Shown here piece by piece: positions 6,639 to 59,909 of a stretch of DNA of 64,000 nucleotides. A model generated the notes under the pieces. That model was given only the letters and a program-made list of their open reading frames with translations, was not told the origin of the DNA and did no database searches. This DNA comes from Chloroflexia bacterium (GTDB lineage Bacteria > Chloroflexota > Chloroflexia > QHBQ01 > JADMIH01), in the NCBI GenBank assembly GCA_036386675.1, contig DASVVE010000023.1, forward strand, positions 7,786 to 71,785, read 5' to 3'. Both the position numbers and the translations under genes were made by a program. Position 1 is the first letter of the stretch. Each line of letters opens with the position of its first letter.

Positions 6639-7844
6639 ATGGCCGCCATCTCCCAAGCCCAATACCAGCAGGCAACTCCCCATACATTGGGCACGCCCAC
6701 CTCCCGCACGACTGCCGGTGCGACCACATTACACGTAAGCGAAGTGAACAGCCGCGCCGCTTTCATGCAGATGCAGGGCGAGTGGAACGCCCTGGTCCGC
6801 GCCACCGACGACCAACCCTTCTACCGCCACGAGTGGTTTCGCATTTGGCTGGACAACTTCGCAGCCGATGCCAGGTGGCGGATATTTGTCGCACGCGACG
6901 GCGAGGGCAAGCTGGTTGGCGCTCTCCCCCTCATCGAACAGCCTGGCATGGTGCTGGGAGCGCCCGCGCGGTGTCTCTCCGCCGCGGCAAACGACCACAC
7001 TCCCCGGTTCGACCTGATTGCCGAGGACCCGGAAGCAGTCGCGGCCGCGTTCGTCGGGCACCTGAGACGCGACAGTAACTGGGACGTCCTGCACCTGCCC
7101 AGCGTGCCGCCTGGGGGCCATGCGTGGCGCTTGTACGAGGCAGCTAACCATGCGGGCCACCCCACCGGCACCTGGCAGGCCGACAACTCACCCTATTTTG
7201 CCTTACCCGCCAGGCACGAGGAGATGCAGAAGCAACTCGACACGAAGTTCAAGGCGAACCTGAGACGCAGGCACAAGAAACTGGCGGAGAAGGGGCCTGT
7301 AACGGTCCAAAAGGCCTCCGGTGAGAGCGACCTGGCATACCACCTGGAGGAAGGCTTCGCGGTGGAGCAGAGCGGCTGGAAGGGGCGTGAGGGTACCGCG
7401 ATGGCCCAGGACGGCCACGTGGCGGGCTTCTACTCGGAGCTTGCGCGATTCGCGGCGCACGACGGCAGCCTGGCGCTCTATTACCTGCGGGTGGATGGCA
7501 AAGCCGTGGCGTTTCACTACGGGCTGACCTACGGCTCGACCTACTACCTGCTCAAACCGGGCTACGACGAGAGCGTGAAGGAGTGCAGTCCGGGCCAACT
7601 GCTGATGGACGAGGTGGTGAAGCAGTGCATCGAAGACGGTCTGACCGAGTTCGACTTCCTTGGTCCCGACATGACGTGGAAGCGGGACTGGGCAAGTGAC
7701 AGCCGGCAGCACACCCGCCTCTACATCTTCCGCGACAGCCCATACGGCAGGTTCCTGCGCAACTACAAGTTCAACTGGTCGAGGCAGGTAAAGCACGCCA
7801 TTACATGGCTGGTCGATTCGGGCGCAGGCATTGGACTTGGATAG
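6639..7844 (+). CDS. CelD/BcsL-like GNAT-fold acyltransferase (Acetyltransf_6 / FemAB-like)
   Basis: EWNALV...PFYRHEWFRIWLDNF...VARDGEGKLVGALPLIE at the N terminus, and YYLRVDGKAVAFHYGL...SPGQLLMDEVVKQCIEDGLTEFDFLGPDMTWKRDW at the C terminus, match the family pattern as I recall it. Paralogous to 9038..10267. Confidence 0.7.
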   Translation: MAAISQAQYQQATPHTLGTPTSRTTAGATTLHVSEVNSRAAFMQMQGEWNALVRATDDQPFYRHEWFRIWLDNFAADARWRIFVARDGEGKLVGALPLIEQPGMVLGAPARCLSAAANDHTPRFDLIAEDPEAVAAAFVGHLRRDSNWDVLHLPSVPPGGHAWRLYEAANHAGHPTGTWQADNSPYFALPARHEEMQKQLDTKFKANLRRRHKKLAEKGPVTVQKASGESDLAYHLEEGFAVEQSGWKGREGTAMAQDGHVAGFYSELARFAAHDGSLALYYLRVDGKAVAFHYGLTYGSTYYLLKPGYDESVKECSPGQLLMDEVVKQCIEDGLTEFDFLGPDMTWKRDWASDSRQHTRLYIFRDSPYGRFLRNYKFNWSRQVKHAITWLVDSGAGIGLG

Positions 7845-12466: not shown

Positions 12467-12667
12467 CTATCCGCCTTCAAAATAGATGGGGGGCACACAG
12501 AGTATGCCGTGCTGCAACAGCCACTCGCCAGTACCCGCACGCGGCTGTGTTCCCAGCGATTGTATCACACGCCAGTCATAGCGGCAATTACCCGTGTGTG
12601 GCACCTGCGGTAGCCCGATAGGGTGATATGCGTGCGCGGTGCATGGGGTACAATGGTGGGGCACCAC
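12467..12667 (-). CDS. Small Cys/His-rich hypothetical protein (66 aa)
   Basis: The ORF ends 12 nt upstream of the CE4 start and its codon usage looks coding-like. No recognisable family; HHCTPCTAHAYH...HTGNC could bind metal. Weak support. Confidence 0.25.
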   Translation of the reverse strand: MVPHHCTPCTAHAYHPIGLPQVPHTGNCRYDWRVIQSLGTQPRAGTGEWLLQHGILCVPPIYFEGG

Positions 12668-12726
12668 TTCGTAGCGGCAAAGCTATCCTGGTGACGTTGA
12701 TCTGGGAGAGCAGCACCCAAGTTCCT

Positions 12727-12890
12727 TTTTGTCATTCTGAACGCAGTGAAGAATCTCGTCCTCTACCGGGGTGTTTCTTCTTTCTTATGGTACCTTGTGG
12801 CTGAAGGAAAGGTGGTATTTGGGTGGTGGAGGACGAGATTCTTCACGGAGTTTACCCTGAGCTTAGCCGAAGAGTTCAGAATGACAAGAA
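12727..12890. repeat. Stand-alone copy of the TGTCATTCTGAACGCAGTGAAGAATCTCGTCC inverted-repeat module ('inner module')
   Basis: Left arm 12730-12761. The right arm ends at 12886 and carries a ~27-nt insertion (GGAGTTTACCCTGAGCTTAGCCGAAGAG). Its loop resembles the loops of the copies at 19284, 47398 and 59687. Confidence 0.85.
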
Positions 12891-12966
12891 GGAGCCATGT
12901 GCTATTATTCGATTTCCTTATCTTGAAGATAGTTTCTAAGCAATTGCCATACAATCACTTTACCTA

Positions 12967-14520
12967 ATGATGAAGGACACCTCCCTGGATACGGACACCC
13001 CAATAGAAGCAGCAGATAAACCTACTGGCGGGCTTGGTAAGCAGGCGGCGCAGGGGGCAGCCTGGAACTACATGGCTTTTGTCGTCAGCAAGGGGCTGGT
13101 GTTCGTATCGACCCTTATCCTGGCGCAGATACTCTCGCCCGCCGAGTTCGGCTTGGTTGGCATGGCGCTGCTCGTTATCACCGTGCTCGACATCCTGCGC
13201 GACTTCGGGATAGGCTCGGCGGTCATCTACTACGGGCGCGAGGGTCCGGCAGCCGCTAACATGGCTTTCGCGCTCAGCAGCGGCATCGGCATCGTTCTAT
13301 TCGCCGCCAACTGGCTGCTGGCACCCTACACGGCCCAGTTCTTCTACAGCGAGAACCCGCAGGACATCCCGACCGTCACCTCCCTGGTGCAGGTGTTGGG
13401 CCTCAGCCTGCTGTTTGCATCGTTGGGCAGCACCCACGACGCCCTGTTGCAGAAAGAGATCAACTACCGGCGGCGCATGGTGCCCGAGGTGGGACGGACG
13501 CTACTCAAGGGCGTGCTGTCGGTGGCGCTGGCGTTCGCGGGGCTGGGGGTGTGGAGCCTGGTTTGGGGGCAGGTGCTGGGGGAGGCGTGCGCCACGGTGC
13601 TGCTGTGGGTGGTGACAAAGTGGCGGCCCGCCCGCTTCTTCCGCCGCGACCTGCTCCGCTCGATGCTCGGCTACAGCTTCCAGACGATGCTGGCGGGCGG
13701 GCTGGGCACGATGCTGGCCGACGTGGACTACTTCATCATAGGCGCGCTGCTCGGCCCCACCGCGCTCGGTATTTACACGCTGGCCTTCCGCATACCCGAC
13801 CTGCTGATAAGGAACATGGCCCAGGCGGTGGCGACGGTGGCCTTCGCGGTGGCGGCCAAGCTGCAATCGGACCTCGCGGCACTGAGAGAAGCCTACCTGA
13901 AAATGCAGCGTTACATGCTGATAATACTGGCACCGCTCGGATTCGGCTTGTTCGCGGTCACCCCAACGCTCATCCATACGCTGTTCAAGCCCGACTGGGC
14001 ACCCGTTATCCCGGTCATGCAGATACTTTCGGTCTACATGGTGCTGGGCGGCATCAACTACTGGCCGGGGGTTATCTACAAGGCGGTGGGGCGGCCGGAC
14101 GTGCTGAACTACATCAGCCTGGTGAAGCTGGCGATGCTGGTGCCCGCGCTCTGGTGGGGTGCGGCTAATTACGGCATCGAGGGCGTCGCCTGGGGGCAGT
14201 TGGGGGTGCGTGTCGTGGGTATCGTGATCGACATGGTGATAGTCGCCCGCTTCGTCAAGATCAGCGTGTTAGACCAGTTGCGCGTGATCTGGCCGCCCCT
14301 GGTTGCCGCTTGCCTCATGTCCGCCGCCGTGCGCCTGCTCTCCTTCGCGGTGGACCCGGCGGAACGAGGAGGGATTCCGGTGCTCATCCTGTCGGTAATC
14401 GTAGGTGGGGCGGTCTACGCGGCGGCCATCTGGCTGCTGGACCGTACGGCGGTGGGCGGCATGTTGGAGTTGGCGCGCTCTATGCTCAAGCGTAACCGGC
14501 TGGCGCCGAAAGAAGCCTAA
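12967..14520 (+). CDS. Wzx-type oligosaccharide flippase (MOP/Polysacc_synt family)
   Basis: 517 aa and highly hydrophobic throughout (about 12-14 helices). The N terminus is of Polysacc_synt type, and the gene sits in a glycan cluster. Confidence 0.8.
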   Translation: MMKDTSLDTDTPIEAADKPTGGLGKQAAQGAAWNYMAFVVSKGLVFVSTLILAQILSPAEFGLVGMALLVITVLDILRDFGIGSAVIYYGREGPAAANMAFALSSGIGIVLFAANWLLAPYTAQFFYSENPQDIPTVTSLVQVLGLSLLFASLGSTHDALLQKEINYRRRMVPEVGRTLLKGVLSVALAFAGLGVWSLVWGQVLGEACATVLLWVVTKWRPARFFRRDLLRSMLGYSFQTMLAGGLGTMLADVDYFIIGALLGPTALGIYTLAFRIPDLLIRNMAQAVATVAFAVAAKLQSDLAALREAYLKMQRYMLIILAPLGFGLFAVTPTLIHTLFKPDWAPVIPVMQILSVYMVLGGINYWPGVIYKAVGRPDVLNYISLVKLAMLVPALWWGAANYGIEGVAWGQLGVRVVGIVIDMVIVARFVKISVLDQLRVIWPPLVAACLMSAAVRLLSFAVDPAERGGIPVLILSVIVGGAVYAAAIWLLDRTAVGGMLELARSMLKRNRLAPKEA

Positions 14521-18411: not shown

Positions 18412-18421
18412 CGAATTGCGG

Positions 18422-18499
18422 ATTTGGAAATTGGAATTTCGAATTGCGAATTTAGTAGGAGTTCAACAAATTCGCAATTCGAAATTCCAATTTCCAAAT
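18422..18499. repeat. Perfect 32-bp-stem palindrome ATTTGGAAATTGGAATTTCGAATTGCGAATTT (family 2)
   Basis: Arms 18422-18453 and 18468-18499 are exact reverse complements with a 14-nt loop. The element fills the gap between the wzz-like stop (18499-18501) and the Wzy_C start (18411). Confidence 0.95.
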
Positions 18500-19149
18500 C
18501 ACTTATTTACTTCCTGGTTGTAGTAAGGGTGGAGGGCGCGAAGCTCGCTTTGTACGCCCCTGGAGCCTACCAGGTAGTCGAGGGCGATCGCGAGGAGCAC
18601 GCCGAGGGCCAGGCCCAGGGCCACGCCCATAGGTATGTCGCGGGCGGGCACCGGGGATGTGGGTTCGATGGGCGGGCTTGCCATTTCGAGCGGCTCAAGG
18701 TCTATGACGCTGTAGTACTGATGGGCTTTGCTTACGGTGTTGCTTATCGTGGCGTTGAGGTAGAGGGCGAGGGCCTGGGGGTCGGGGCCACTGGCGCTTA
18801 CCGCGATCACCGAGGAGTCGGGCAGCACGTTGGCCTCCAGATCGTACAAGTGGGCCTCATCGGGATTTAGCCCGGCTGCCTCACGGGCGGCGGTCTTTAC
18901 GTCAGCGGAGGTGAACGTCTGCGCCAGGGTGCCGGTGACGTGGCGCGAGCCAAGCTGCCCCACCAGGTCCACAATCGTGACGGTGTTCGAGAGCACCGCC
19001 GCAGGTCGCGCGGCCACCCGGGCCTGGACGCTGTACCTGGGGGTGCGCACCGAATCGAGCAGGGCGGCCCCACCCCCGGCGGCCAGCATAGACAAAAGGA
19101 TCACCCACCAGTAGCGGGCGATTATACGCAGGTACGTACCGACTTCCAT
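18499..19149 (-). CDS. Wzz / polysaccharide chain-length determinant (PCP) family protein
   Basis: N-terminal YLRIIARYWWVILLSMLAAGG helix and C-terminal GVALGLALGVLLAIALDYL helix flank a soluble domain. No kinase domain or adjacent BY-kinase gene. Confidence 0.7.
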   Translation of the reverse strand: MEVGTYLRIIARYWWVILLSMLAAGGGAALLDSVRTPRYSVQARVAARPAAVLSNTVTIVDLVGQLGSRHVTGTLAQTFTSADVKTAAREAAGLNPDEAHLYDLEANVLPDSSVIAVSASGPDPQALALYLNATISNTVSKAHQYYSVIDLEPLEMASPPIEPTSPVPARDIPMGVALGLALGVLLAIALDYLVGSRGVQSELRALHPYYNQEVNK

Positions 19150-19173
19150 AGGTCTTTACCTCATGTGGGGATT

Positions 19174-19518
19174 CTGAAACGTGAAACGTGAAACGTGAAA
19201 CGTGAAACGTGAAACGTGATGCGGCTAACTGTACTTGGTTCGTGGGTGCGAGCTTGTTACTGTTGCGGGACCATCTTCCTTCCTGTCATTCTGAACGCAG
19301 TGAAGAATCTCGTCCCTCTCTTAGGTATAACACCTTTCTTGAGATGAGAGTGTTGCCCTTGGAAGAGGGCCGCTTGGGTGCTGTAGGACGAGATTCTTCG
19401 CTGAGTTCAGAATGACAGGGCCTACTTGGTTCTGTCCTGCCAACAGTCCAGCACTCACGTACCCTATTGCACAAGCCGCATTAAGTTTCACGTTTCACGT
19501 TTCAGAGCCACGTTTCAG
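19174..19518. repeat. Composite nested palindromic element (family 1, full form): (GAAACGT)6-GATGCGGC cap enclosing the inner module at 19284..19417
   Basis: Left cap CTGAAACGT x6 then GATGCGGC (19174-19225). Right cap GCCGCATTAAGTTTCACGTTTCACGTTTCAG... (19475-19518). The inner inverted repeat TGTCATTCTGAACGCAGTGAAGAATCTCGTCC pairs with GGACGAGATTCTTCGCTGAGTTCAGAATGACA. The right cap contains the stop codon of the GT4 gene. Confidence 0.9.
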
Positions 19519-20622
19519 CATCAATTTCTCGTACAGTTCCTCGACGTGGTTCACCATCTTGTCTATGGTGAAGTGCGCGTGCACCCTCGCCTGGCCTGAT
19601 GAGCCGAGGCGCTGGGCGAAATCGCGGTCTGTTATGAGACGGGCCAGGCCCTCCGTGAGAGCGGCCCTGTCGCCAGGCTCCACCAGCAGGCCCGTCGAGC
19701 CATCTTGCACCACTTCGGGTACGCCGCCCACGCGCGTGGCTACCACGGGCAAGCACATCGACATGGCCTCCAGCACGGCTATTGGCAACGCTTCCTTGTG
19801 CGAGGGCAAGACGAACACGTCCATCGCATTCAGCAGCCGGGTTACGTCGTCGCGGGTGCCGGTAAATAGCGCGGCCCCTGTATCGAGCATGCCCAACTCG
19901 CCTGCGTACTTCTCTAGGTCCGGGCGTAGCGGCCCGTCACCTATTATAAGCAGCCTTACGTGCGGGTGCGACTTTCGTAGCTCGTTCGCGGCCCAGAGGA
20001 GGTCGTCCTGGCCGCCCTTGTCGGCACTCAGGCGGCCCACTGTGCCGATTACCACGTCTTTCGGTGCAAGGCCGAGTTCCTGGCGCACCGTCGGGGCCTC
20101 GACCCCTGGCTTGAACCGCGAGATGTCCACACCATTATAGGTCACGTCGAGATAACGCGCGGGGATTCCCTCCATCTGCATGACCAATTGCTTGCTGGCT
20201 TCGGAGGGCACCAGGATACGGTCTGTGAGACGATAGAGGAGGCGGTCTACCCACACTTCGCGTTGCGCCTTGGACGACCAGTGCTCGTGCGCTATTATCA
20301 CCGGCACCCCGGCTAGCCTGCCGAGCACGCGACCCCAGGTGTTCGCGCCGAAGAGGTGGGTGTGGAGGACGTGCACGGGCTGGCGGCGCATGAAGCGCAC
20401 CAGGCCGAGCATCTTGTGGCTCTCCCAGCGGCTGTTGCGCTCTATCACGAGGGTGCGCACCCCGGCAGCGTCGAGCAGGGGTTGGTAGTTGCCGGTGTGG
20501 CGGGTGACTACCACGGTGACGTTGAAGCGGGAGCGGTCCAGGCGCAGCGCGAGGTCAACCAGGGCCTTCTCGGCCCCGCCCCGCCCAGTCACATCCGTCA
20601 TTTGCACCACGTTCAGCTTCAT
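19495..20622 (-). CDS. Glycosyltransferase family 4
   Basis: VVQMTDVTGRGGAEKAL at the N terminus and HKEALPIAVLEAMSMCLPVVATRVGGVPEVV at the C terminus. The last residues KRGSET and the stop are encoded by the GAAACGT repeat. Confidence 0.85.
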   Translation of the reverse strand: MKLNVVQMTDVTGRGGAEKALVDLALRLDRSRFNVTVVVTRHTGNYQPLLDAAGVRTLVIERNSRWESHKMLGLVRFMRRQPVHVLHTHLFGANTWGRVLGRLAGVPVIIAHEHWSSKAQREVWVDRLLYRLTDRILVPSEASKQLVMQMEGIPARYLDVTYNGVDISRFKPGVEAPTVRQELGLAPKDVVIGTVGRLSADKGGQDDLLWAANELRKSHPHVRLLIIGDGPLRPDLEKYAGELGMLDTGAALFTGTRDDVTRLLNAMDVFVLPSHKEALPIAVLEAMSMCLPVVATRVGGVPEVVQDGSTGLLVEPGDRAALTEGLARLITDRDFAQRLGSSGQARVHAHFTIDKMVNHVEELYEKLMLKRGSET

Positions 20623-29192: not shown

Positions 29193-29347
29193 CTGAAACG
29201 TGAAACGTGAAACGTGAAACGTGATGCGGTAAGGATTATAGGGTACGTGAATTCAACCCTGCTCCTAAGACGTGACCCTGCTCCAACTTCCCCGATTCAC
29301 GCACCCTCTTTAGCAAGCCGCATCACGGTTCACGTTTCACGTTTCAG
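29193..29347. repeat. Family 1 palindromic element, short form (no inner module)
   Basis: CTGAAACGT x4 then GATGCGG ... GGGTACGTGAATTC ... GATTCACGCACC ... GCCGCATCACGGTTCACGTTTCACGTTTCAG. Confidence 0.9.
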
Positions 29348-30883: not shown

Positions 30884-30969
30884 AAAACGTGAAACGTGAT
30901 GCGGCAAGGCTCACATGCTCACTAATAAAGAACCAAGTTCCACAAGTCTCATCACGTTTCACGTTTCAC
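30884..30969. repeat. Family 1 palindromic element, minimal form
   Basis: AAAACGTGAAACGTGATGCGGC ... GTCTCATCACGTTTCACGTTTCAC. The right arm contains the dxr stop codon (30952-30954). Confidence 0.85.
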
Positions 30970-32242: not shown

Positions 32243-32406
32243 CTCTGTTTCACTTTGTCATCCTGAGCGCAGCGAAGGATCAGGTGGGTAGATAAGAGTC
32301 CCCAACATTGGGGATGCTCATGGCAAGAGAAACACTGGTCCCTGAAAAGTAAGAGTCAAGAACGGGCTACTGATCCTTCGCTGCGCTCAGGATGACAGAG
32401 TGAAAC
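32243..32406. repeat. Variant inner-module inverted repeat (TGTCATCCTGAGCGCAGCGAAGGATCAG) extended by GTTTCAC/GTGAAAC
   Basis: The left arm CTCTGTTTCACTTTGTCATCCTGAGCGCAGCGAAGGATCAG is mirrored by CTGATCCTTCGCTGCGCTCAGGATGACAGAGTGAAAC. Confidence 0.85.
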
Positions 32407-32462
32407 TTGGTTCCTCTAATCTGGGGTCTAATAAACATCACATCGCTTGAGCAAAATCAGTC

Positions 32463-33371
32463 TTACCTCAGCAAGCGTAAGGGCAGATACAGTGCCAGGG
32501 AAATCAATATGGGGCCGTGGCTAAGTTCTACCAGGGCGCGGGCCAGGTCCACAGCGCGAGGGTGAAGGCGGTGCGCGCCTGAAGCGGCCTCCATCAGGGG
32601 GCGCGTGAGATAGCTGACGATCAGCCCTATGCCGATAAGGGACGCAATAATGAGGCCGAAAATCAGCAGCCAGGTAGGCTCAGTCAGTTGGTTCAGCAAG
32701 TTGAGCGAAACGACCACGGTGGAGAGTAGGGTCGCCAACAGCAGCGCCACACCGGCGGGCAACAGGCTTCCCTGCCTGGTAATGCGCCGTAGGGCCAATA
32801 GTATGGCCTCGAACAAGATGGGCGGCAGTAGCACCGAGAGCAGGAAGACGCGAGGCCCCAGGTTGCTGCCGAACACCCCCAACAGCAGCCACATGGCATG
32901 CACGCCCAACGACGCGTACAGGGCCATCGACATCACCAGCGCCCAGTCACGGAGCGCCCGCTGAAGGTCACGGCGGCCCAGGTGCGCTACCAATGTGAGT
33001 GCCGCCACAGGCCCGAGCGCGTCCACCAGGCGGGAAGGAGTGTTGGTGACCAGGGTGGGCAGCGTAAGTGCCACGTAAGCCCCAACACTGAGCGCGGCCC
33101 AGCCCCAGCGCAACGATGCAGGGCCTTCAAACAGGTTGCTAGCTGCCGCGCCCACCACGAACGCACCCCACACCAGCAGGGTCGCCACAACGGGGTTGAG
33201 CAGCGTCCACGACAGCAACCACGAAAGCGGGCTGCCAACCGACATCAACAGGAGGATGACGGCCGCCAGTACGAGTTTCCAGGCGAGGTTGAGCCAGCTT
33301 GAGCGAGGGCCGCTGGGGTTTGTAACGCGCTCGGCAGTGGGGCCTGGTGTGGCAGTGGGCGAACCCCGCAT
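32463..33371 (-). CDS. Polytopic membrane protein of unknown function, in the position normally held by cdsA
   Basis: About 8 hydrophobic helices. ATG 33371 lies 10 nt after the uppS stop. I cannot find the CdsA signature (S-x-x-K-R...K-D...P-G-H-G-G-x-x-D-R-x-D). Confidence 0.6.
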   Translation of the reverse strand: MRGSPTATPGPTAERVTNPSGPRSSWLNLAWKLVLAAVILLLMSVGSPLSWLLSWTLLNPVVATLLVWGAFVVGAAASNLFEGPASLRWGWAALSVGAYVALTLPTLVTNTPSRLVDALGPVAALTLVAHLGRRDLQRALRDWALVMSMALYASLGVHAMWLLLGVFGSNLGPRVFLLSVLLPPILFEAILLALRRITRQGSLLPAGVALLLATLLSTVVVSLNLLNQLTEPTWLLIFGLIIASLIGIGLIVSYLTRPLMEAASGAHRLHPRAVDLARALVELSHGPILISLALYLPLRLLR

Positions 33372-33381
33372 CGACTTCGCG

Positions 33382-34224
33382 CTAGACCGCCGCGGGGTCG
33401 GGGCTGTTGGAGACGGAGGCCTGCTCGTCCACCGGGGTGGCGGTATCGGTTTCGCCGGTGTCGGCGCCGGGGGTGAAAGGCAAGCCGTTGTGCTCGGCGT
33501 ATTCTCGGTACTCTTCGGGCAGGATGCCGCCGAATTTGCGGTGCCTGCGGCCATATTCCCTGATGGCCTCAGCGAAGGCTTCCTTGTCGAAGTCGGGCCA
33601 GGTGGTCGGGGTCGAATAGTATTCGGAGTAGGCGGCCTGCCACAGCAGGAAGTTGCTCAGGCGCATCTCCCCGGCGGTGCGGATAATCAGGTCGGGGTCC
33701 GGCGTGCCCGCTGTGTCGAGGTGCGTCGAAATCAGTTCCTCGGTGATGTCTTCGGGCTTGACCCCCTGCGCGACCAGCTTGCGCACGGCCCGCACCACGT
33801 CGTCGCGGCCGCCGTAGTTGAAGCACACGCTCAGGATGAGGCGGCTGTTGTGCTTGGTGGTCTCAAGCGAGTAGGCGATGGCATCTTGCAGGGCCTGGGG
33901 TACGTTCTCCATATGGCCCAGGTGCCGTATCTGCACCCCCTCTCGGTCGAGTTCGGGCGTCTCGCGCTCTATCACCTCGGCCAGGATGCGCATGAGGCCC
34001 TGGACCTCGCTGTCGGGCCTATTCCAGTTCTCGGTGGAGAAGGCGTACACGGTGAGGTACTTTACGCCGTTCTCGACGCAGGCATGCACGATGCGCCGGA
34101 TGTTCTCGGTGCCCGCCCGGTGCCCCATGAGCCTCGGCTTCCCGCGCTGCCGCGCCCACCGCCCATTACCATCCATGATGATGGCAACGTGCTGAGGCTT
34201 GAGATCTGAGTTCGCTTCGCTCAT
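33382..34224 (-). CDS. uppS: Isoprenyl transferase (undecaprenyl diphosphate synthase family)
   Basis: HVAIIMDGNGRWA, FSTENWNRP and RTAGEMRLSNFLLWQAAYSE are present. There is a C-terminal acidic extension of about 45 aa. Confidence 0.9.
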   Translation of the reverse strand: MSEANSDLKPQHVAIIMDGNGRWARQRGKPRLMGHRAGTENIRRIVHACVENGVKYLTVYAFSTENWNRPDSEVQGLMRILAEVIERETPELDREGVQIRHLGHMENVPQALQDAIAYSLETTKHNSRLILSVCFNYGGRDDVVRAVRKLVAQGVKPEDITEELISTHLDTAGTPDPDLIIRTAGEMRLSNFLLWQAAYSEYYSTPTTWPDFDKEAFAEAIREYGRRHRKFGGILPEEYREYAEHNGLPFTPGADTGETDTATPVDEQASVSNSPDPAAV

Positions 34225-35819: not shown

Positions 35820-35922
35820 CTGAAACGTGAAACGTGAAACGTGATGCGGCTTGTGGGATAGTGTCCCATCTTGGCCTCACTGGTACTTGTAGTACCATCA
35901 CGTTTCACGTTTCACGTTTCAG
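35820..35922. repeat. Family 1 palindromic element, short form
   Basis: CTGAAACGT x3 then GATGCGGC ... CATCACGTTTCACGTTTCACGTTTCAG. It starts 3 nt after the tsf stop, inside the tsf-pyrH gap. Confidence 0.9.
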
Positions 35923-35924
35923 CC

Positions 35925-36467
35925 CTACGCGCCTGTGCCGTTGTTGCTGTCGCTGGCTTGCTGGGAGCCGCCCGCGGTGCCTACTTCAAAGCGGATGAAG
36001 CGGCTGATCTGGATGTTCTCACCCAGCTTGCCGATGGCTTCCTTTACCAGGTCGCGGATGGTCTTGCGGGGGTCGCGGATGTACTCCTGGTCCAGCAGGG
36101 CGTTGCCGGAGCCTGAGCCGGAGCCACCTTCGAGGGTGCCCACTTCGGCGGGGTCCATCGAAGCCACCTGCATAGCGACCTCGCGGGCCAGCGTGCGGAA
36201 CTCCGGCGTGCGAGCCACAAAGTCGGTCTCGCAATTCACCTCGACCAGCGCACCGATGCGCCCGCCCGTGTGTATGTACGACTCGATTAGACCCTGGCTC
36301 ACTTCTCTACCTGCTACCTTGCTGGACTTGGCTAGTCCCTTCTGGCGCAACGCCTCCACGGCCTTTTCCACGTTGCCGCCGGACTCCTGCAATGCCTTCT
36401 TGCAGTCCATTACGCCGGCGCCAGTCTTCTCGCGCAGTTCCTTTACTGCCTGTGCTGAAATGTCCAC
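35925..36467 (-). CDS. tsf: Elongation factor Ts (short form)
   Basis: ISAQAVKELREKTGAGVMDCKKALQESGGNVEKAVEALRQKG is followed by a dimerisation core. The GTG start at 36467 is preceded by GGAGG. Confidence 0.85.
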   Translation of the reverse strand: MDISAQAVKELREKTGAGVMDCKKALQESGGNVEKAVEALRQKGLAKSSKVAGREVSQGLIESYIHTGGRIGALVEVNCETDFVARTPEFRTLAREVAMQVASMDPAEVGTLEGGSGSGSGNALLDQEYIRDPRKTIRDLVKEAIGKLGENIQISRFIRFEVGTAGGSQQASDSNNGTGA

Positions 36468-44669: not shown

Positions 44670-47303
44670 ATGCCGATGAGAGCGCCGCTCTCGTGGTTGC
44701 GGGAGTACATAGACATTAATGTGCCGGTGGAGGAGTTAGCCCGCCGCTTGACCCTTGCAGGGCAGGAGGTGGAGCATATCGTCCGCATCGGCGCGGAGTG
44801 GGAGAACATTTACACCGGCGTGGTTGCTAGATTGGAGAGGCACCCTAACGCCGACCGGCTGAACCTGGCTACCGTAGAGTACGGGGCAGGGAAGGCCATC
44901 ACGGTGGTGACGGGCGCGCCCAACATCGAGCAGGGGCAGAAGGTGGTGCTGGGGCTGGTGGGGTGCAAGTACCTGGACCAGCACGTGGAGCCGCCCAAGT
45001 GGTCCACCCTCAAGCCCGCAAAGATTCGGGGCATCCAGACCGAGGGGATGGTCATGTCGGAGGCGGAGCTTGGGCTGTCGGAGGAGCACGAGGGCATTAT
45101 CGTGCTCGACCCGCAGACGCCGCTTGGCCTCACCGCCCAGGAGGTGCTTGGCGACACGGTGCTGGAGATAGATGTCACCCCGAACAACGGGCGCATCCTG
45201 TCGATGATTGGCATGGCCCGCGAAATAGCGGCGCTGTTCGATGGCGAGGTGCGCTATCCCACAATTGAGTGGCATGCCGCAGGACCACCTGCCGAACAAC
45301 TCTTGAGCGTCGAGATACACGACCCCGACCTCTGTGCTCGCTACTCCGGCGCGGTGATACAGAACGTGAAGATTGGGCCTTCGCCCGCCTGGATGCAGCG
45401 CCGCCTGGCGCTGGCGGGTATGCGCCCCATCAACAACATCGTGGACATCACCAACTACGTCATGCTGGAGATGGGCCAGCCCCTGCACGCCTTCGACTAC
45501 GAGGCGGTGGAGGGACGCAAGATTATCGTGCGCCGCGCCAGGCAAGGGGAGCAGATAGAGACGCTCGACCACGTCCACCGGACGCTGGACCCCAATATGC
45601 TCGCCATCTGCGACATCAACAAGCCGGTGGCGCTCGCGGGTGTTATGGGCGGGGCCAACAGCGAGATTGGCACTGAGGGCACGGCCACGGTGCTGCTGGA
45701 GTCGGCCCACTTCAACCCGCGCACGGTGCGCCGGACCGCTCGCCTGTTGAAGCTGCCTTCCGAGGCGTCGTACCGCTTCGAGCGTTGGGTCGATCCCACT
45801 CTGACGGTGCCTGCCATGAAGCGGGCGGCGGAATTGATGCGGCAGCTTGGCGGCGGCACCATAGCCGAGGGCTACGCGGACGAGTACCCACGCCCCCCGA
45901 AGCCGAGGCGCATCCACTTCTACACCGATGAGGTGGAGCGGCTGCTGGGCATACCCCTGCCGCCCTCGGAGATAGCCAGGATGCTTGAGCGGCTGGAGTT
46001 CAAGGTGGACCTGCCCCACAACGCCGACGCCGTAGGCAAGTACACTACCATGCTCATTGACGTGCCCTCGTACCGCAACGACGTGACCATACCCGCCGAT
46101 GTCGTGGAAGAGGTGGCGCGCATGGTGGGTTACGACATCATCCCCGAAACGATGCTTGAGGGCAGGTTGCCGCGCCCTGAGGTGAACCACTCGCGCCAGA
46201 TTGCCGAGGATATACACGACAGGATGCTGGCTTCCGGCATGGACGAGGTGCTCACCTACTCGGTGACGCACAGCGAGTCGTTGCGCAGGCTGGCGGCCCT
46301 GGAGGAGAGCATCGGCAGCCAGGGTGTGGATGGAGCGGAGGAGAGGCCGCAGTACCGGGCCTGGGACACGTCGCGTCCGCCGGTGACCATCGTCAACCCG
46401 ACCAGCAGCAGACAAGACGTGATGCGCCCTACCATGCTACCGAACATGCTCGACACCCTGCTGATGAACATGCGCCTGATGCCGGAAGCGCCGATACGTA
46501 TCTTCGAGCTTGGTAAGATATTCGTGACGCGCACGGAGCAAGAGGTGGAGCAACGGCGGGCCGAAATCGAACGCGAGCGGGTGCAGTACCCACGCCTACG
46601 CAATTGGCAACCGGTACAGGGCGAGGAGCGTCTGCCACTGGAATTACGCCGCCTCACCGGCCTGATATCCGGGCCGAGGGAACCACGTTCGCTCTTCTCT
46701 GACGATGGTGGGGCAGCGCCCCAACCCTGGCACGGCGAGGAGTTGGACTTCTTCGACGCAAAGGGTGTGGTGGAGGAACTGCTGCGCCACCTGCACATGC
46801 AGGGAGTGGAGTGGGTGCCCGCGGGCGCGCCGCTGTTCCACCCCGGCCGGGTCGCTATGCTGCGAGCAGGGGGCCGAGACCTGGGAATCGTGGGCGAGCT
46901 ACACCCGGCTGTTCTCGTGGAATGGGACATACCCGCCAAACGAGTGGCGGCGTGGGACCTGGACGTGGAGGCGCTAATCGAGTCGGTACCGGAGCGCCAC
47001 ATGTACAACCAGATCAGCCCTTACGTGCCGGTGCGGCAAGACATGGCCTTCGTGGTGCCCGCCGATATGGCTGCCGCACGGATAGCGGGGGCTATCAAGC
47101 GCGCGGGCGGGGCAAGTGTGCTCGACGTTACGCTGTTCGACATCTACACAGGCCAGCAGGTAGGCGAGGGCCAAAAGAGCATGGCCTTCGCCGTGACCTT
47201 CAACTCGACCGAAAAGCTGCTCACGGAGGAGGATGTCGCCCGCGTCCGCCAACGTATAGCCCGCACGTTAGAGCGGGAGTTGGGGGCGAAGCTTAGAGGG
47301 TAG
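44670..47303 (+). CDS. pheT: Phenylalanine--tRNA ligase beta subunit
   Basis: N-terminal MRAPLSWLREYIDI..., a tRNA-binding (EMAP-like) domain, B3/4 and B5 domains, and a C-terminal FDIYTG...KSMAFAVTF anticodon-binding domain. 877 aa. Confidence 0.95.
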   Translation: MPMRAPLSWLREYIDINVPVEELARRLTLAGQEVEHIVRIGAEWENIYTGVVARLERHPNADRLNLATVEYGAGKAITVVTGAPNIEQGQKVVLGLVGCKYLDQHVEPPKWSTLKPAKIRGIQTEGMVMSEAELGLSEEHEGIIVLDPQTPLGLTAQEVLGDTVLEIDVTPNNGRILSMIGMAREIAALFDGEVRYPTIEWHAAGPPAEQLLSVEIHDPDLCARYSGAVIQNVKIGPSPAWMQRRLALAGMRPINNIVDITNYVMLEMGQPLHAFDYEAVEGRKIIVRRARQGEQIETLDHVHRTLDPNMLAICDINKPVALAGVMGGANSEIGTEGTATVLLESAHFNPRTVRRTARLLKLPSEASYRFERWVDPTLTVPAMKRAAELMRQLGGGTIAEGYADEYPRPPKPRRIHFYTDEVERLLGIPLPPSEIARMLERLEFKVDLPHNADAVGKYTTMLIDVPSYRNDVTIPADVVEEVARMVGYDIIPETMLEGRLPRPEVNHSRQIAEDIHDRMLASGMDEVLTYSVTHSESLRRLAALEESIGSQGVDGAEERPQYRAWDTSRPPVTIVNPTSSRQDVMRPTMLPNMLDTLLMNMRLMPEAPIRIFELGKIFVTRTEQEVEQRRAEIERERVQYPRLRNWQPVQGEERLPLELRRLTGLISGPREPRSLFSDDGGAAPQPWHGEELDFFDAKGVVEELLRHLHMQGVEWVPAGAPLFHPGRVAMLRAGGRDLGIVGELHPAVLVEWDIPAKRVAAWDLDVEALIESVPERHMYNQISPYVPVRQDMAFVVPADMAAARIAGAIKRAGGASVLDVTLFDIYTGQQVGEGQKSMAFAVTFNSTEKLLTEEDVARVRQRIARTLERELGAKLRG

Positions 47304-47304
47304 G

Positions 47305-47634
47305 CTGAAACGTGGTTCTGAAACGTGAAACGTGATGAGGCTTGCTATTGCTGGTACGTGAATAGGAGGCTGTCTCTAACGTGGGACCATCTTCCCCTTT
47401 GTCATTCTGAACGCAGTGAAGAATCTCGTCCCTTAGCACCCAAGTTGCCCCTTTCTCCTGGGCACGTGTCTTCTTCGAGAAAAGTGGAACATCCCGGTAG
47501 AGGACGAGATTCTTCGCTATGCTCACAATGACAAAGCCCAACAGCGTCCTGCCCTACAAACAGGGTGGTATTCACGAACCGAATAACACCAGCCGTATCA
47601 CGTTTCACGTTTCACGTTTCAGAAACCCCGTTTC
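47305..47634. repeat. Family 1 composite element, full form (inner module 47398..47536, inverted relative to copy 19174)
   Basis: Starts 2 nt after the pheT stop with CTGAAACGTGGTTCTGAAACGTGAAACGTGATGAGG. Subterminal GGTACGTGAATA pairs with TATTCACGAACC. The right cap is CGTATCACGTTTCACGTTTCACGTTTCAGAAACCCCGTTTC. Confidence 0.9.
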
Positions 47635-50453: not shown

Positions 50454-50485
50454 TTTGTCATCCCTCACTGCGTTCGGAATGACAA
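50454..50485. repeat. Collapsed remnant of the inner module
   Basis: TTTGTCATCCCTCACTGCGTTCGGAATGACAA retains both ends of the inverted repeat without the centre. Confidence 0.6.
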
Positions 50486-50645
50486 TACTACTCTGAGCGA
50501 CGAAAAGTGGCTCGTGCTCACTGGAAAGAGCGATTTTCTACCTCTAAGATAGGTGCAATCGGGCATATGTGGTGTTATAATACGCATCACCCGGACGGAC
50601 TTATATCGACCCGCATCGTGAAAGCTGAGTAGAGGAGCGAACGCT

Positions 50646-56142: not shown

Positions 56143-56171
56143 GGAAGGTGGGACAACATAATAGCTAAGCA

Positions 56172-56306
56172 GACTTTCAGGGCAGGGTGAGATTCCCGAC
56201 CGGCGGTAAGGCGAATGTCGTACAAAGCAGTTGCCAAGCCCGCGAGCCGCAAGGCAGACCCGGTGAGAAGCCGGGGCCGACGGTATAGTCCGGATGGAAG
56301 AAAGTC
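56172..56306 (+). promoter_or_regulatory. FMN riboswitch (RFN element) aptamer
   Basis: P1 pairs GACUUUC with GAAAGUC. Conserved blocks are AGGGCAGGGUGAGAUUCCCGACCGGCGGUAA, AGCCCGCGAGCC, CCGGUGAGAAGCCGGGGCCGACGGUAUAGUCCGGAUGGAAGAAAG. This is a near-textbook match to the B. subtilis ribD leader as I recall it. Confidence 0.9.
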
Positions 56307-56404
56307 GAACAAGCCGCACGCGCGGTGGCATCTCATGCAGGGCCGCGCGGTCGAAGGCCGGGTCATCCCGGTGTTCGCGCATGGGGCTGTTCACGATTCC
56401 TCGA

Positions 56405-56438
56405 CCCTGGTAGCTGCAAGGCAACCGGGGATTTTTTT
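56405..56438 (+). terminator. Riboswitch expression-platform terminator
   Basis: CCCUGGUAGC-UGCAAG-GCAACCGGGG stem-loop followed by AUUUUUUUA, directly in front of ATG 56439. Confidence 0.6.
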
Positions 56439-57338
56439 ATGGGCTATGCAGAGACAGAGACAACCACGCCACAGAACATGAGTGGCTACAACCGCATAAC
56501 CGGTGTTCCTACCGGGCCGCGTAACGGGCACCCCGAACAGGATGCCGTGTTGCTTGCGCCAGATGAGCCGGACAGGGCGCTTGCCGTACGCACTACCCTG
56601 CTGCGGGCGTTGGTGGGGTTAGTGGCACTGGCGGGGCTGGTGTTGGTCTGGTGGCTGCTGGTGGCGGTGGGCAATTATCCGCCGTTCATCTTGCCCGCGC
56701 CGCTGGACGTGGCTGAGCGGACCTGGAGCATGCTGCTTGACGGCTCGCTGTGGCTGCATTTCGGCACTACCACGCTTGAGGCGGGGCTGGGGTTTGTGCT
56801 GGCGCTGCTGGTCGGATTGCCGCTTGGTTACTTGCTGGCGCATAGCAGGCGGCTTGAGCGGGTGGTCAGCCCCTACATCGCCGTCAGCCAGGGGTTGCCG
56901 GTGGTGGCTATCGCGCCTCTGCTGGTGCTCTGGTTGCAGGATGATTTGGCGCGCAAGGTGGTGATTGTCGCGCTTATCGTGTTCTTCCCGCTGCTGGTAA
57001 ACGCCGTCGTGGGGCTGCGCGGGATTGACAGGTCGATGCTGGAGGTGGCGCGGATATCGGGCGCGAACCGCTGGCAGACGATCTGGTACGTGGAGCTGCC
57101 GCTGAGCCTGCGGGCGCTGCTGGGGGGGGTGAAGCTGGGGCTTACCCTCTCGATCACAGGCGCGGTGGTGGGCGAGTTTGTGTCGTCGGGGGCGGGGCTG
57201 GGGTTCCTGCTCATGCTGGGTAGGGGGCTGTTCGATACGACGCTCATCTTCGTGGGGCTGGTGTCGCTGGCCTTCCTCACGGTGGTGGCGTACCTGGGGG
57301 TTAGCCTGCTGGAGAAGTGGCTGATTAGCTGGGAGTAG
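56439..57338 (+). CDS. ribX: ABC transporter permease (NitT/TauT-ThiX type), predicted riboflavin transporter component RibX
   Basis: Six hydrophobic helices with a BPD_transp_1-like loop (EVARISGANRWQTIWYVELPLSL). It sits under the FMN riboswitch. Start is uncertain (ATG 56439 or 56478, neither with an SD). Confidence 0.75.
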   Translation: MGYAETETTTPQNMSGYNRITGVPTGPRNGHPEQDAVLLAPDEPDRALAVRTTLLRALVGLVALAGLVLVWWLLVAVGNYPPFILPAPLDVAERTWSMLLDGSLWLHFGTTTLEAGLGFVLALLVGLPLGYLLAHSRRLERVVSPYIAVSQGLPVVAIAPLLVLWLQDDLARKVVIVALIVFFPLLVNAVVGLRGIDRSMLEVARISGANRWQTIWYVELPLSLRALLGGVKLGLTLSITGAVVGEFVSSGAGLGFLLMLGRGLFDTTLIFVGLVSLAFLTVVAYLGVSLLEKWLISWE

Positions 57339-58535: not shown

Positions 58536-58863
58536 CTGAAACGGGGTTCTGAAACGGGGTTCTGAAACGTGAAACGTGATGCGGCTTGCTATTGTTGGTG
58601 CGTGAATACGAGGTCATTGATATACAGGGGCCATATTCCCCCTGTCATCCTGAACGCAGTGAAGGATCTCAAGAAGTTGAGGAGTGGTGCTGTTGAACGT
58701 GTGGGTCACGGTGCTACAGGTTCAGTGCCGTGGTAAGAGGAGCATCTGAGATCCTTCACTGCGTTCAGGATGACAGGGGGAATATGGTCCCGCCAAAGTA
58801 AACGTCTAGCATCCACGAACCAACCATAGCAAACCGCATCACGTTTCACGTTTCACGTTTCAG
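58536..58863. repeat. Family 1 composite element, full form (inner module 58629..58790 with 43-bp near-perfect arms)
   Basis: CTGAAACGGGGTTCTGAAACGGGGTTCTGAAACGTGAAACGTGATGCGGC forms the left cap. The inner arm GGCCATATTCCCCCTGTCATCCTGAACGCAGTGAAGGATCTCA is mirrored at 58747-58790. The right cap CCGCATCACGTTTCACGTTTCACGTTTCAG contains the stop of the MBL-like gene. Confidence 0.9.
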
Positions 58864-59599: not shown

Positions 59600-59909
59600 C
59601 TGAAACGTGAAACGTGAAACGTGATGCGGCTTGTGATGTTTGGTACGTGAATATGAGGCTGCTCGATTGCAGGGCCGAGTCTCTACTTTGTCATTCTGAA
59701 CGCAGTGAAGAATCTCGTCCTCTACCCCGATGTTTCCCTTTTCTTAGGGCACACTGTTACCAATCGAAAAGTGCTCCTTGGGTGCTGTAGGACGAGATTC
59801 TTCACTGCGTTCAGAATGACAAAGGCCCTACGGCGACTCGCAACTAAAGCAGAGTCCCATTCACGTACCTATTGAGCAAGCCGCATCACGTTTCAGATCC
59901 ACGTTTCAG
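59600..59909. repeat. Family 1 composite element, full form (inner module 59687..59824)
   Basis: CTGAAACGT x3 then GATGCGGC, GGTACGTGAATA ... the inner inverted repeat ... CATTCACGTACC, GCCGCATCACGTTTCAGATCCACGTTTCAG. It fills the pknB-to-MBL gap. Confidence 0.9.

Follow-up and report, generated by a model that had tools for sequence, protein, structure and literature searches.

Positions 19174–19518 of a 64,000-nt stretch of a Chloroflexia draft genome, here called the window, hold a long imperfect palindrome of 345 bases, which we interpret as gene-less shells, stacked one in the other, from two families of selfish cassettes that are small, palindromic and unrelated to each other; we put the probability of this explanation as a whole at roughly 60%. 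The inner unit, a module of ~135 bp, is an inverted doublet of TGTC-tagged hairpins and would be a miniature derivative of copies that carry a gene for a GIY-YIG nuclease. The outer unit would be a foldback with inverted heptamer-array ends, of a class that encloses PF05635 genes in this clade and phylum. An anonymous palindrome of the kind usually called MITE-like (after miniature inverted-repeat transposable elements) is thereby tied to two concrete candidate protein partners. The window corresponds to C23:7786–71785 of a 5.2-Mb, 86-contig, 90%-complete draft assembly (G000; other genomes carry other G numbers, and C numbers denote contigs), and the public sequencing runs that contain window sequence are soil and biocrust metagenomes.

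Folded as single-stranded DNA, 19170–19522 forms a single hairpin of −102.5 kcal/mol (shuffle mean −45, z = −12). The left cap (19176–19217) is an array of six GAAACGT heptamers with GGATTCT immediately outside it, followed by a left middle arm of 66 nt (19218–19283) that begins with GATGCGGC, continues with GGTTCGTGGGTG and extends up to GGGACCATCTTCCTTCC. At the centre lies the inner module, which measures 134 bp and consists of 32-nt inverted arms (TGTCATTCTGAACGCAGTGAAGAATCTCGTCC) and a 70-nt loop. Its left arm (19284–19315) carries the TGTC tag and a small hairpin, ATTCT-GA-A / CGCAG / T-GA-AGAAT, that resembles the NTS and Ssn-related motifs (SRMs) discussed below; the loop or spacer (19316–19385) is of subfamily A (fam1) and occupies the place where full copies have a GIY-YIG gene; and the right arm (19386–19417) is an inverted copy of the left with 2 mismatches. 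The right half runs from the mirror arm through GCCGCAT to (ACGTTTC)n: the right middle arm (19418–19481) leads via CACTCACGTACC to AAGCCGCAT, and the right cap (19485–19518, ACGTTTCAG) is an ACGTTTC array with a 4-nt spacer, AGCC, and one further copy. A literature search with the element sequence gave no match.

Inner module and GIY-YIG nuclease genes

To place the palindrome among its relatives, we counted both units across the genome and the phylum. The first-pass annotation, made from the window's letters, had proposed two independent non-autonomous repeat units, one centred in the other, with inner modules also occurring independently of the caps, and the census bears out both points. 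Among 289 paired inner modules genome-wide (234 of which measure 130–140 bp), 208 (~72%) have no GAAACGT array on either side, and 56–58 lie inside caps. The two units also differ in their spread: the 25-nt inner arm is present in 56 of 401 sampled phylum genomes (49 of 218 genera), with a patchy copy number of 0 to ~350 per strand that rises in bursts, whereas the cap motif is patchy within the genus (0 to ~147 per strand) and found in two genera of a neighbouring family. Both are thus independent repeats with dynamic copy numbers. By loop sequence, the inner modules fall into three subfamilies of 133, 110 and 20 members. Weak conservation continues for about 22 nt beyond each arm (GGACCA..CCCCCT), in uncapped copies too, and the inner unit is thus better described as ~180 bp long; within-copy covariation of these extensions shows a slight excess only (0.43 versus 0.395).

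We then examined base pairing within 736 arms. The pairing is A4-T24, T5-A23, Y6-R22, C7-G21, Y8-R20, G9.A19, A10.G18 and R11-Y17 around a CGNAG loop. Covariation is seen at four of the six Watson-Crick pairs, and standard pairs make up more than 95%: positions 6/22 are TA in 375 arms, CG in 339 and non-pairs in 20; positions 7/21 are CG in 660 and TA in 49; positions 8/20 are TA in 657 and CG in 66; and positions 11/17 are GC in 441 and AT in 247. The tandem G.A / A.G pair never varies. A non-palindromic tag immediately 5' of the hairpin orients the repeat; it reads TGTC in 705 of the 736 arms and CGTC in 24.

As candidates for gene-bearing copies we took the only two places in the genome with a plus and a minus arm 400–6000 bp apart. 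At C66:6913–7350, a 115-aa open reading frame (ORF, ~7002–7349) between subfamily-A arms matches the Pfam GIY-YIG domain PF01541 (E = 8.5e-15), and a whole-genome GIY-YIG search identified a second small gene (~33050–33340, 96 aa) between fam0 arms at C39 ~33003–33405. The two proteins are 65% identical. Their 70-nt cassette ends sort by subfamily, those at C66 matching fam1 only (up to 98% identity) and those at C39 fam0 only (up to 93%). When one genome per species was scanned, we found more than 580 homologues of the nuclease at 56–71% identity in many phyla. Among the 73 loci with full flanks, to which the flank statistics are confined, an arm lies within 200 nt of the gene in 43 and on both sides in 25; arm-flanked nuclease loci occur in Chloroflexota, Cyanobacteria, Acidobacteriota, Deltaproteobacteria and other groups. 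Tyr17 and Glu64 of the GIY-YIG protein share their residue numbers with the positions that were mutated in SsnA (PMC11893778), a weak correspondence.

In Neisseria, the NTS repeat is CGTCATTCCCGCGMAVGCGGGAATCYRG and brackets the nuclease gene in an NTS-ssnA-NTS cassette; more widely, SRMs flank small GIY-YIG single-stranded-DNA nucleases (PMC11893778). The inner module shares with these NTS/Ssn cassettes an xGTC-tagged small hairpin with GTCATTC..GAATC in common, hundreds of intergenic copies, a patchy and wide spread over phyla, and a ~100-aa single-domain GIY-YIG gene between inverted copies. It differs in that its arm stem is AT-rich with a tandem G.A pair, whereas the NTS stem is GC-rich, and in that it exists mostly as regular gene-less doublets with a conserved ~70-nt spacer and three subfamilies. 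Because the same arms enclose or adjoin GIY-YIG genes, here and across phyla, the inner module is, judged by sequence, a gene-less form of an Ssn-type cassette, and neither a classical MITE nor a REPIN linked to a REP-associated tyrosine transposase (RAYT). The inner unit is a fresh variant of the Ssn/NTS system published in 2025, one that escapes the published search pattern. This extends that system to a variant that is abundant in Chloroflexota and that, in Cyanobacteria, Acidobacteriota and other phyla, stands beside genes homologous to the nuclease. Acting in trans, the predicted nucleases may recognise gene-less copies in single-stranded, hairpin form, and would probably spread them with no target-site duplication.

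A different possibility is that both units are classical MITEs: deletion derivatives of an insertion sequence (IS) with a DDE transposase, moved by cut-and-paste that acts on their inverted ends. Such an origin would suit the presence of terminal inverted repeats, the uniform length, the high copy number and the patchy distribution, as well as the Rfam result: on the palindrome, Rfam gave only sub-threshold matches to plant miRNA precursors (MIR1919 and MIR1515, ~42 bits), which we read as generic long-hairpin resemblance. Yet 183 inner copies outside caps have no target-site duplication of at least 3 nt at any fixed offset, and no arm pair (TGTCATYCTGARCG) in the 90%-complete draft encloses a transposase, only the two GIY-YIG cassettes. 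A search for multi-copy DNA returned repeated surface-protein C-termini and no IS-like sequence, and hairpin covariation within an arm is foreign to DDE inverted repeats. We consider a MITE origin highly improbable.

The first-pass annotation had instead pointed to HUH or RAYT-like genes as partners, and this did not hold. REP or REPIN elements spread by a RAYT, a Y1 HUH transposase, would resemble the inner module in being intergenic, in consisting of two inverted small hairpins and a spacer, and in lacking target duplications, and the genome does have one Y1_Tnp gene. This gene (C86:98135–98566, 143 aa), however, lies at C86:98037–98660 between inverted copies of a different, GTAG-tagged REP (GCGATTGAAATCGCGGGCTACA), which elsewhere forms ~125-bp doublets and has a core motif with 54 matches genome-wide. 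In high-copy genomes the inner arms flank 0 of 24 Y1 loci (one locus has arm matches ~1.1 kb downstream), and G086, G216 and G022 are rich in inner arms with no Y1 gene. The inner arms instead flank GIY-YIG genes, and the heptamer caps PF05635 genes. Spread by a RAYT is very hard to credit here. REPINs and BIMEs with their RAYT, reportedly treated by Bertels and Rainey in 2011 and by Ton-Hoang et al. in 2012, do offer a parallel: the replicating unit is an intergenic doublet of small hairpins without target duplication, served by a single-copy gene with the same flanking repeats. In our case a GIY-YIG nuclease takes the place of the Y1 transposase as partner, and the RAYT of this genome has a REP family of its own.

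Heptamer caps and PF05635 genes

To characterize the outer element, we searched the genome for tandem arrays and for paired caps. Period-7 tandem arrays of at least 3 units number 552, against 5, 43, 68 and 36 for periods 5, 6, 8 and 9. At least 12 different heptamer units occur, nearly always as inverted pairs of fixed polarity; for GAAACGT, 114 of 117 pairs share the same polarity. The GAAACGT caps are therefore one member of a class. Their arrays range from 2 to 17 units genome-wide, and the cap pairs, at least 106, have a bimodal length distribution (75–150 and 275–350 bp).

All copies of the outer element in the window are gene-less. Elsewhere, arrays of this class enclose genes of the PF05635 family, of which there are 4 in this genome (among them C1:47623–47931), 3–12 in relatives and 21 in one phylum genome. 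In the genus/order set, 13 of 23 PF05635 genes lie between exact inverted tandem arrays, as do 6 of 22 in the phylum set; control windows shifted by 800 nt gave 0 of 46 and 0 of 44, and Y1 transposase loci 0 of 18. In a sister species, one locus (G022:C492) reads (GAAACGT)3-GATG..PF05635 ORF..CATC-(ACGTTTC)3-AGAACC, with the same caps as the 19174 element. PF05635, the '23S rRNA intervening sequence protein' family (S23p), includes Avd of the diversity-generating retroelements (DGRs) (PMC10053308). No reverse transcriptase gene (RVT_1) is present in the genome, so its PF05635 genes are not DGR accessory genes and a DGR role is unlikely.

The closest published relative of the outer element is the intervening sequence (IVS) in the 23S rRNA of Coxiella burnetii, a palindrome 428 nt long that contains an S23p ORF and in which the (GACAGAT)3 repeat varies in number (PMC4990558). 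Both combine a palindrome with a PF05635 gene in the loop and variable tandem heptamers in the stem region, and the IVS, too, is seen as selfish and of obscure mobility. All copies examined here, in contrast, lie between protein-coding genes and none in helix 45 of 23S rRNA, most have lost the gene, and many heptamer units coexist in one genome.

Tandem heptamers have a wider history; the STRR repeats of heterocystous cyanobacteria were reportedly described by Mazel et al. in 1990. Like STRR and the paired GGGAATC arrays of Xanthomonas (PMC4692102), the arrays here are intergenic, far exceed those of other periods, form inverted pairs (only in part in those systems) and have no known function. 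They differ in belonging to another phylum, in being almost all inverted pairs with fixed polarity, and in enclosing other repeat modules or PF05635 genes. We found no description of a link between heptamer foldbacks and PF05635 in searchable papers. This link bears on the nature of STRR-type repeats and on the origin of 23S rRNA IVSs with their S23p ORFs.

Several other arrays of this kind were noted. A second large heptamer family, (GGACGAT)n, has 108–213 arrays (e.g. C12:125393–125612 and C13:33641–33809), and in its elements (GAGGACT)n arrays are nested at one side and (GGCGTCTT)n octamers at the opposite one. At its 3' end, the window's contig finishes in a long (GATGGAC)n array. Inverted cap pairs also surround ordinary-looking ORFs at C55:55902–56979, C66:20149–21206 and C66:15440–16091 (316, 246 and 157 aa), which may be cargo or lie between adjacent half-elements.

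Central nesting and comparison of orthologous sites

We next asked how the two units came together, measuring outer-arm length in 48 composites. The distance from GATGCGG to GTCAT is 65–69 nt on both sides in all three subfamilies, and 58 of ~290 modules (~20%) lie inside elements that cover 0.32% of the genome. Other cargo occupies the same centre, namely a small GC hairpin in ~7 medium copies and a GTAG-REP doublet in C40:19638; a subfamily A module also sits in the spacer of a RAYT-type REPIN (C12:48680–49120). Exactly central nesting that recurs with several cargo types suggests apex targeting, and would make hairpin apices insertion targets. Small non-coding repeats nested in one another and co-transcribed with neighbouring genes are known from Correia, BOX/RUP and BIME mosaics. 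The elements described here resemble such nested MITEs and mosaic repeats in both respects, and differ from them in that the nesting is exactly central and involves several cargo types.

From these patterns we infer mobility, nuclease specificity and apex targeting. The inner doublet would have entered the exact centre of the outer foldback, its single-stranded apex, repeatedly. Later changes, evident at orthologous sites, are loop inversion by recombination between the arms, growth, shrinkage or replacement of heptamer arrays, and internal deletion at short direct repeats in the arms, which gives rise to short forms and remnants. Repeated insertion at the hairpin apex is likely, and preferential landing of the inner unit in the outer loop plausible. 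A stronger version, in which the heptamer arrays are the termini of mobile cassettes encoding pentameric Avd-like PF05635 proteins and Ssn-type cassettes insert specifically into foldback apices, is one we put forward tentatively; if true, small hairpin cassettes parasitise one another and the origins of STRR and IVS are explained.

Comparison of orthologous sites in related genomes allows these steps to be set beside an alternative, in which one to three founding insertions were followed by multiplication of the whole composite (caps, arms and inner module) as a unit, with short and medium forms arising by deletion and no continuing preference for the loop. The fixed GATGCGG-GTCAT distance fits such amplification of a few founding composites. 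So does the copy at 29193–29345, which the first-pass annotation listed among three short copies lacking the module: its left arm is full, its right arm is truncated and both G021 and G022 have inner modules at the site, which makes it a deletion derivative. At least some short copies are thus secondary, most of them being asymmetric (24 of 34 keep GATGCGG on one side only). Homologous outer arms, on the other hand, hold different subfamilies. At the 19174 site the module is of subfamily A in G000 and of B in G008, G021, G022 and G023, the arms being clearly homologous; at 58536, three genomes have fam0 and G023 has A; and at 29193, G000 has no module, G021 has B and G022 has fam0. Arms within one subfamily are very divergent and show no visible sorting by subfamily, and the other hairpin cargo at the same centre likewise speaks against multiplication as a unit. 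Gene conversion among dispersed copies could imitate re-insertion. On balance, we regard founding composites as an unlikely account of the family.

The same comparison documents turnover in place. The loop at 12727 is inverted between G000 and G021, with orthologous flanks. The first-pass annotation had described the module as present in either orientation relative to the caps; orientations of the loop do differ, and since the outer element is symmetric and the 12727 loop inverted in place, separate insertions are not needed. The remnant at 50454 and the collapsed copy of G008 at the 59600 site result from deletions between short direct repeats, ATTCC or ATCCT, that occur in both arms. Caps are exchanged at orthologous sites, with (GTAACAC)n in G021 at three sites and (AATTCTT)n round the same arms in G019 at 47305. 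The element is absent at orthologous sites in G002 and G011 (19174), in G022 and G023 (12727), and in G019 (58536). Insertion polymorphism is accordingly seen between species.

A further reading is selection for structure: the palindrome would act as an RNA or DNA element, for instance operon punctuation, an RNase III site or a terminator, kept for its hairpin alone and repeated because its function is. Spacers between co-directional genes are occupied by copies all the way to the stop codon and the ribosome-binding site, and the copies are therefore most likely transcribed as long hairpins in operon mRNAs. In most relatives these spacers contain a hairpin of some kind even where the sequence family differs, and the fold is very stable. 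Against this, the sequence families are common to unrelated loci and phyla, which requires copying, and some relatives have no element at all at orthologous sites. As a sole explanation, selection for structure seems improbable; as a secondary use it is compatible with two nested cassette families, and a role in mRNA processing is possible.

Beyond the constant arm length and the deletion origin of 29193, several observations weigh against our explanation of nested Ssn-type and PF05635-type cassettes. Only 19 of 183 uncapped inner modules lie within a larger palindrome, and with ~90% of them outside any, apex targeting cannot be a general rule. Not one of the 736 arms matches the SRM pattern as published, HGTCWYN(0-2)YYVSBRHN(0-5)WNVSBRGN(0-2)RNCYNB, which was built by hand from 29 genomes (PMC11893778). 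The lone arm hairpin is weak in nearest-neighbour folding, at −1 to −4 kcal/mol and not beating shuffles, compared with −9 for the NTS consensus; together, the missing pattern and the weak predicted hairpin make the inner unit a possible rather than an established member of the SRM family. The arm covariation would be just as compatible with a dyad site for a protein on double-stranded DNA. Among the 73 homologous nuclease genes, 30 have no arm within 200 nt. A single GAAACGT-capped PF05635 gene was found, that of G022, and it has no middle arms GATGCGGCTTGCT..GGTNCGTGAAT (GATGCGGYTTGCT..GGTNCGTGAAT); the middle arms thus form a third layer, outside the present explanation. Finally, no mobility event was observed, and all differences are interspecies.

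Further copies in the window and neighbouring features

Eleven cap matches in the window (19211, 29216/29317, 30891, 35836, 47327/47592, 58571/58833 and 59616/59880; 0 expected by chance) confirm all seven GAAACGT-capped copies proposed by the first-pass annotation. The inner arm TGTCATTCTGAACGCAGTGAAGAATCTCGTCC has six matches (12730, 19284/19386, 47400 and 59689/59790; 0 expected by chance). A central ~135-bp module is indeed present in the four long copies, although that of 58536 belongs to another subfamily (GAAGGATCTCAAG...). Besides 19174, the long composites are those at 47305–47620 (subfamily A, its loop in the opposite orientation to that at 19284), 58536–58860 (fam0) and 59600–59905 (subfamily A). 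At the last of these sites, a 72-nt mini form is present in G023 and a (GTAACAC)n hairpin in G021. The short capped copies at 30884–30965 and 35820–35925 both lack GCCGCATC in their right caps; the latter recurs in G022 and G023, and G021 has a (GTAACAC)n hairpin in its place.

Three further modules, one of them a remnant, had been described as standing alone. The subfamily A module at 12727–12895 lies outside any cap, and its right arm carries a 27-nt insertion. The module at 32243–32410, of subfamily B (fam2), is not truly alone, as it lies within degenerate outer-type arms (GGTACGTAAATG at the usual distance). The mini-hairpin at 50454–50490 is a remnant left by deletion between ATTCC direct repeats, and G008 keeps the full module.

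Some sites show additional variation. Across 12650–12970, G022 and G023 lack ~290 bp found in G000 and G021 (the inner module with ~65 and 95 nt of non-palindromic flank), and this absence is bounded by TACAAT-containing repeats just upstream of a gene at 12967. In G008 (L030) and G021 (L031), the orthologs of 47300–47625 have 2.1–2.9 kb between the flanks, compared with a 320-bp composite in G000. The G011 ortholog of 19150–19250 (L016) reads GAAACGT ATTGCGT ATTGCGT AGTTCGT ATTGCGT .. GATGCGTG, a variant heptad run that suggests in-place turnover of heptamer units. Medium GAAACGT-capped copies with a central hairpin of about CAGGGTCGCC-loop-GGCGACCCTG and no TGTC module occur at C6:87876, C64:35168, C71:129123, C39:98430, C16:29033 and C73:25071. 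A small element with inverted ends TGGTGCATYTTGCAAGTAA lies inside an inner-module arm at C3:31134–31663 in G000 and at loci L017/L018 and L037 in G019; in G019 this element itself holds a B-type module, an extra level of nesting.

On the practical side, metagenome contigs stop at these repeats, which interrupt assemblies from short reads and can easily be mistaken for small ORFs. The sole above-threshold Rfam match is a flavin mononucleotide (FMN) riboswitch (RF00050, 114 bits) at 56169–56309 on the plus strand, upstream of an ORF at 56325–57338. A separate repeat family is represented by a palindromic repeat of ~80 bp between two minus-strand ORFs at 18420–18500; many genomes of the genus have copies of it, at 85–98% identity, on both strands.

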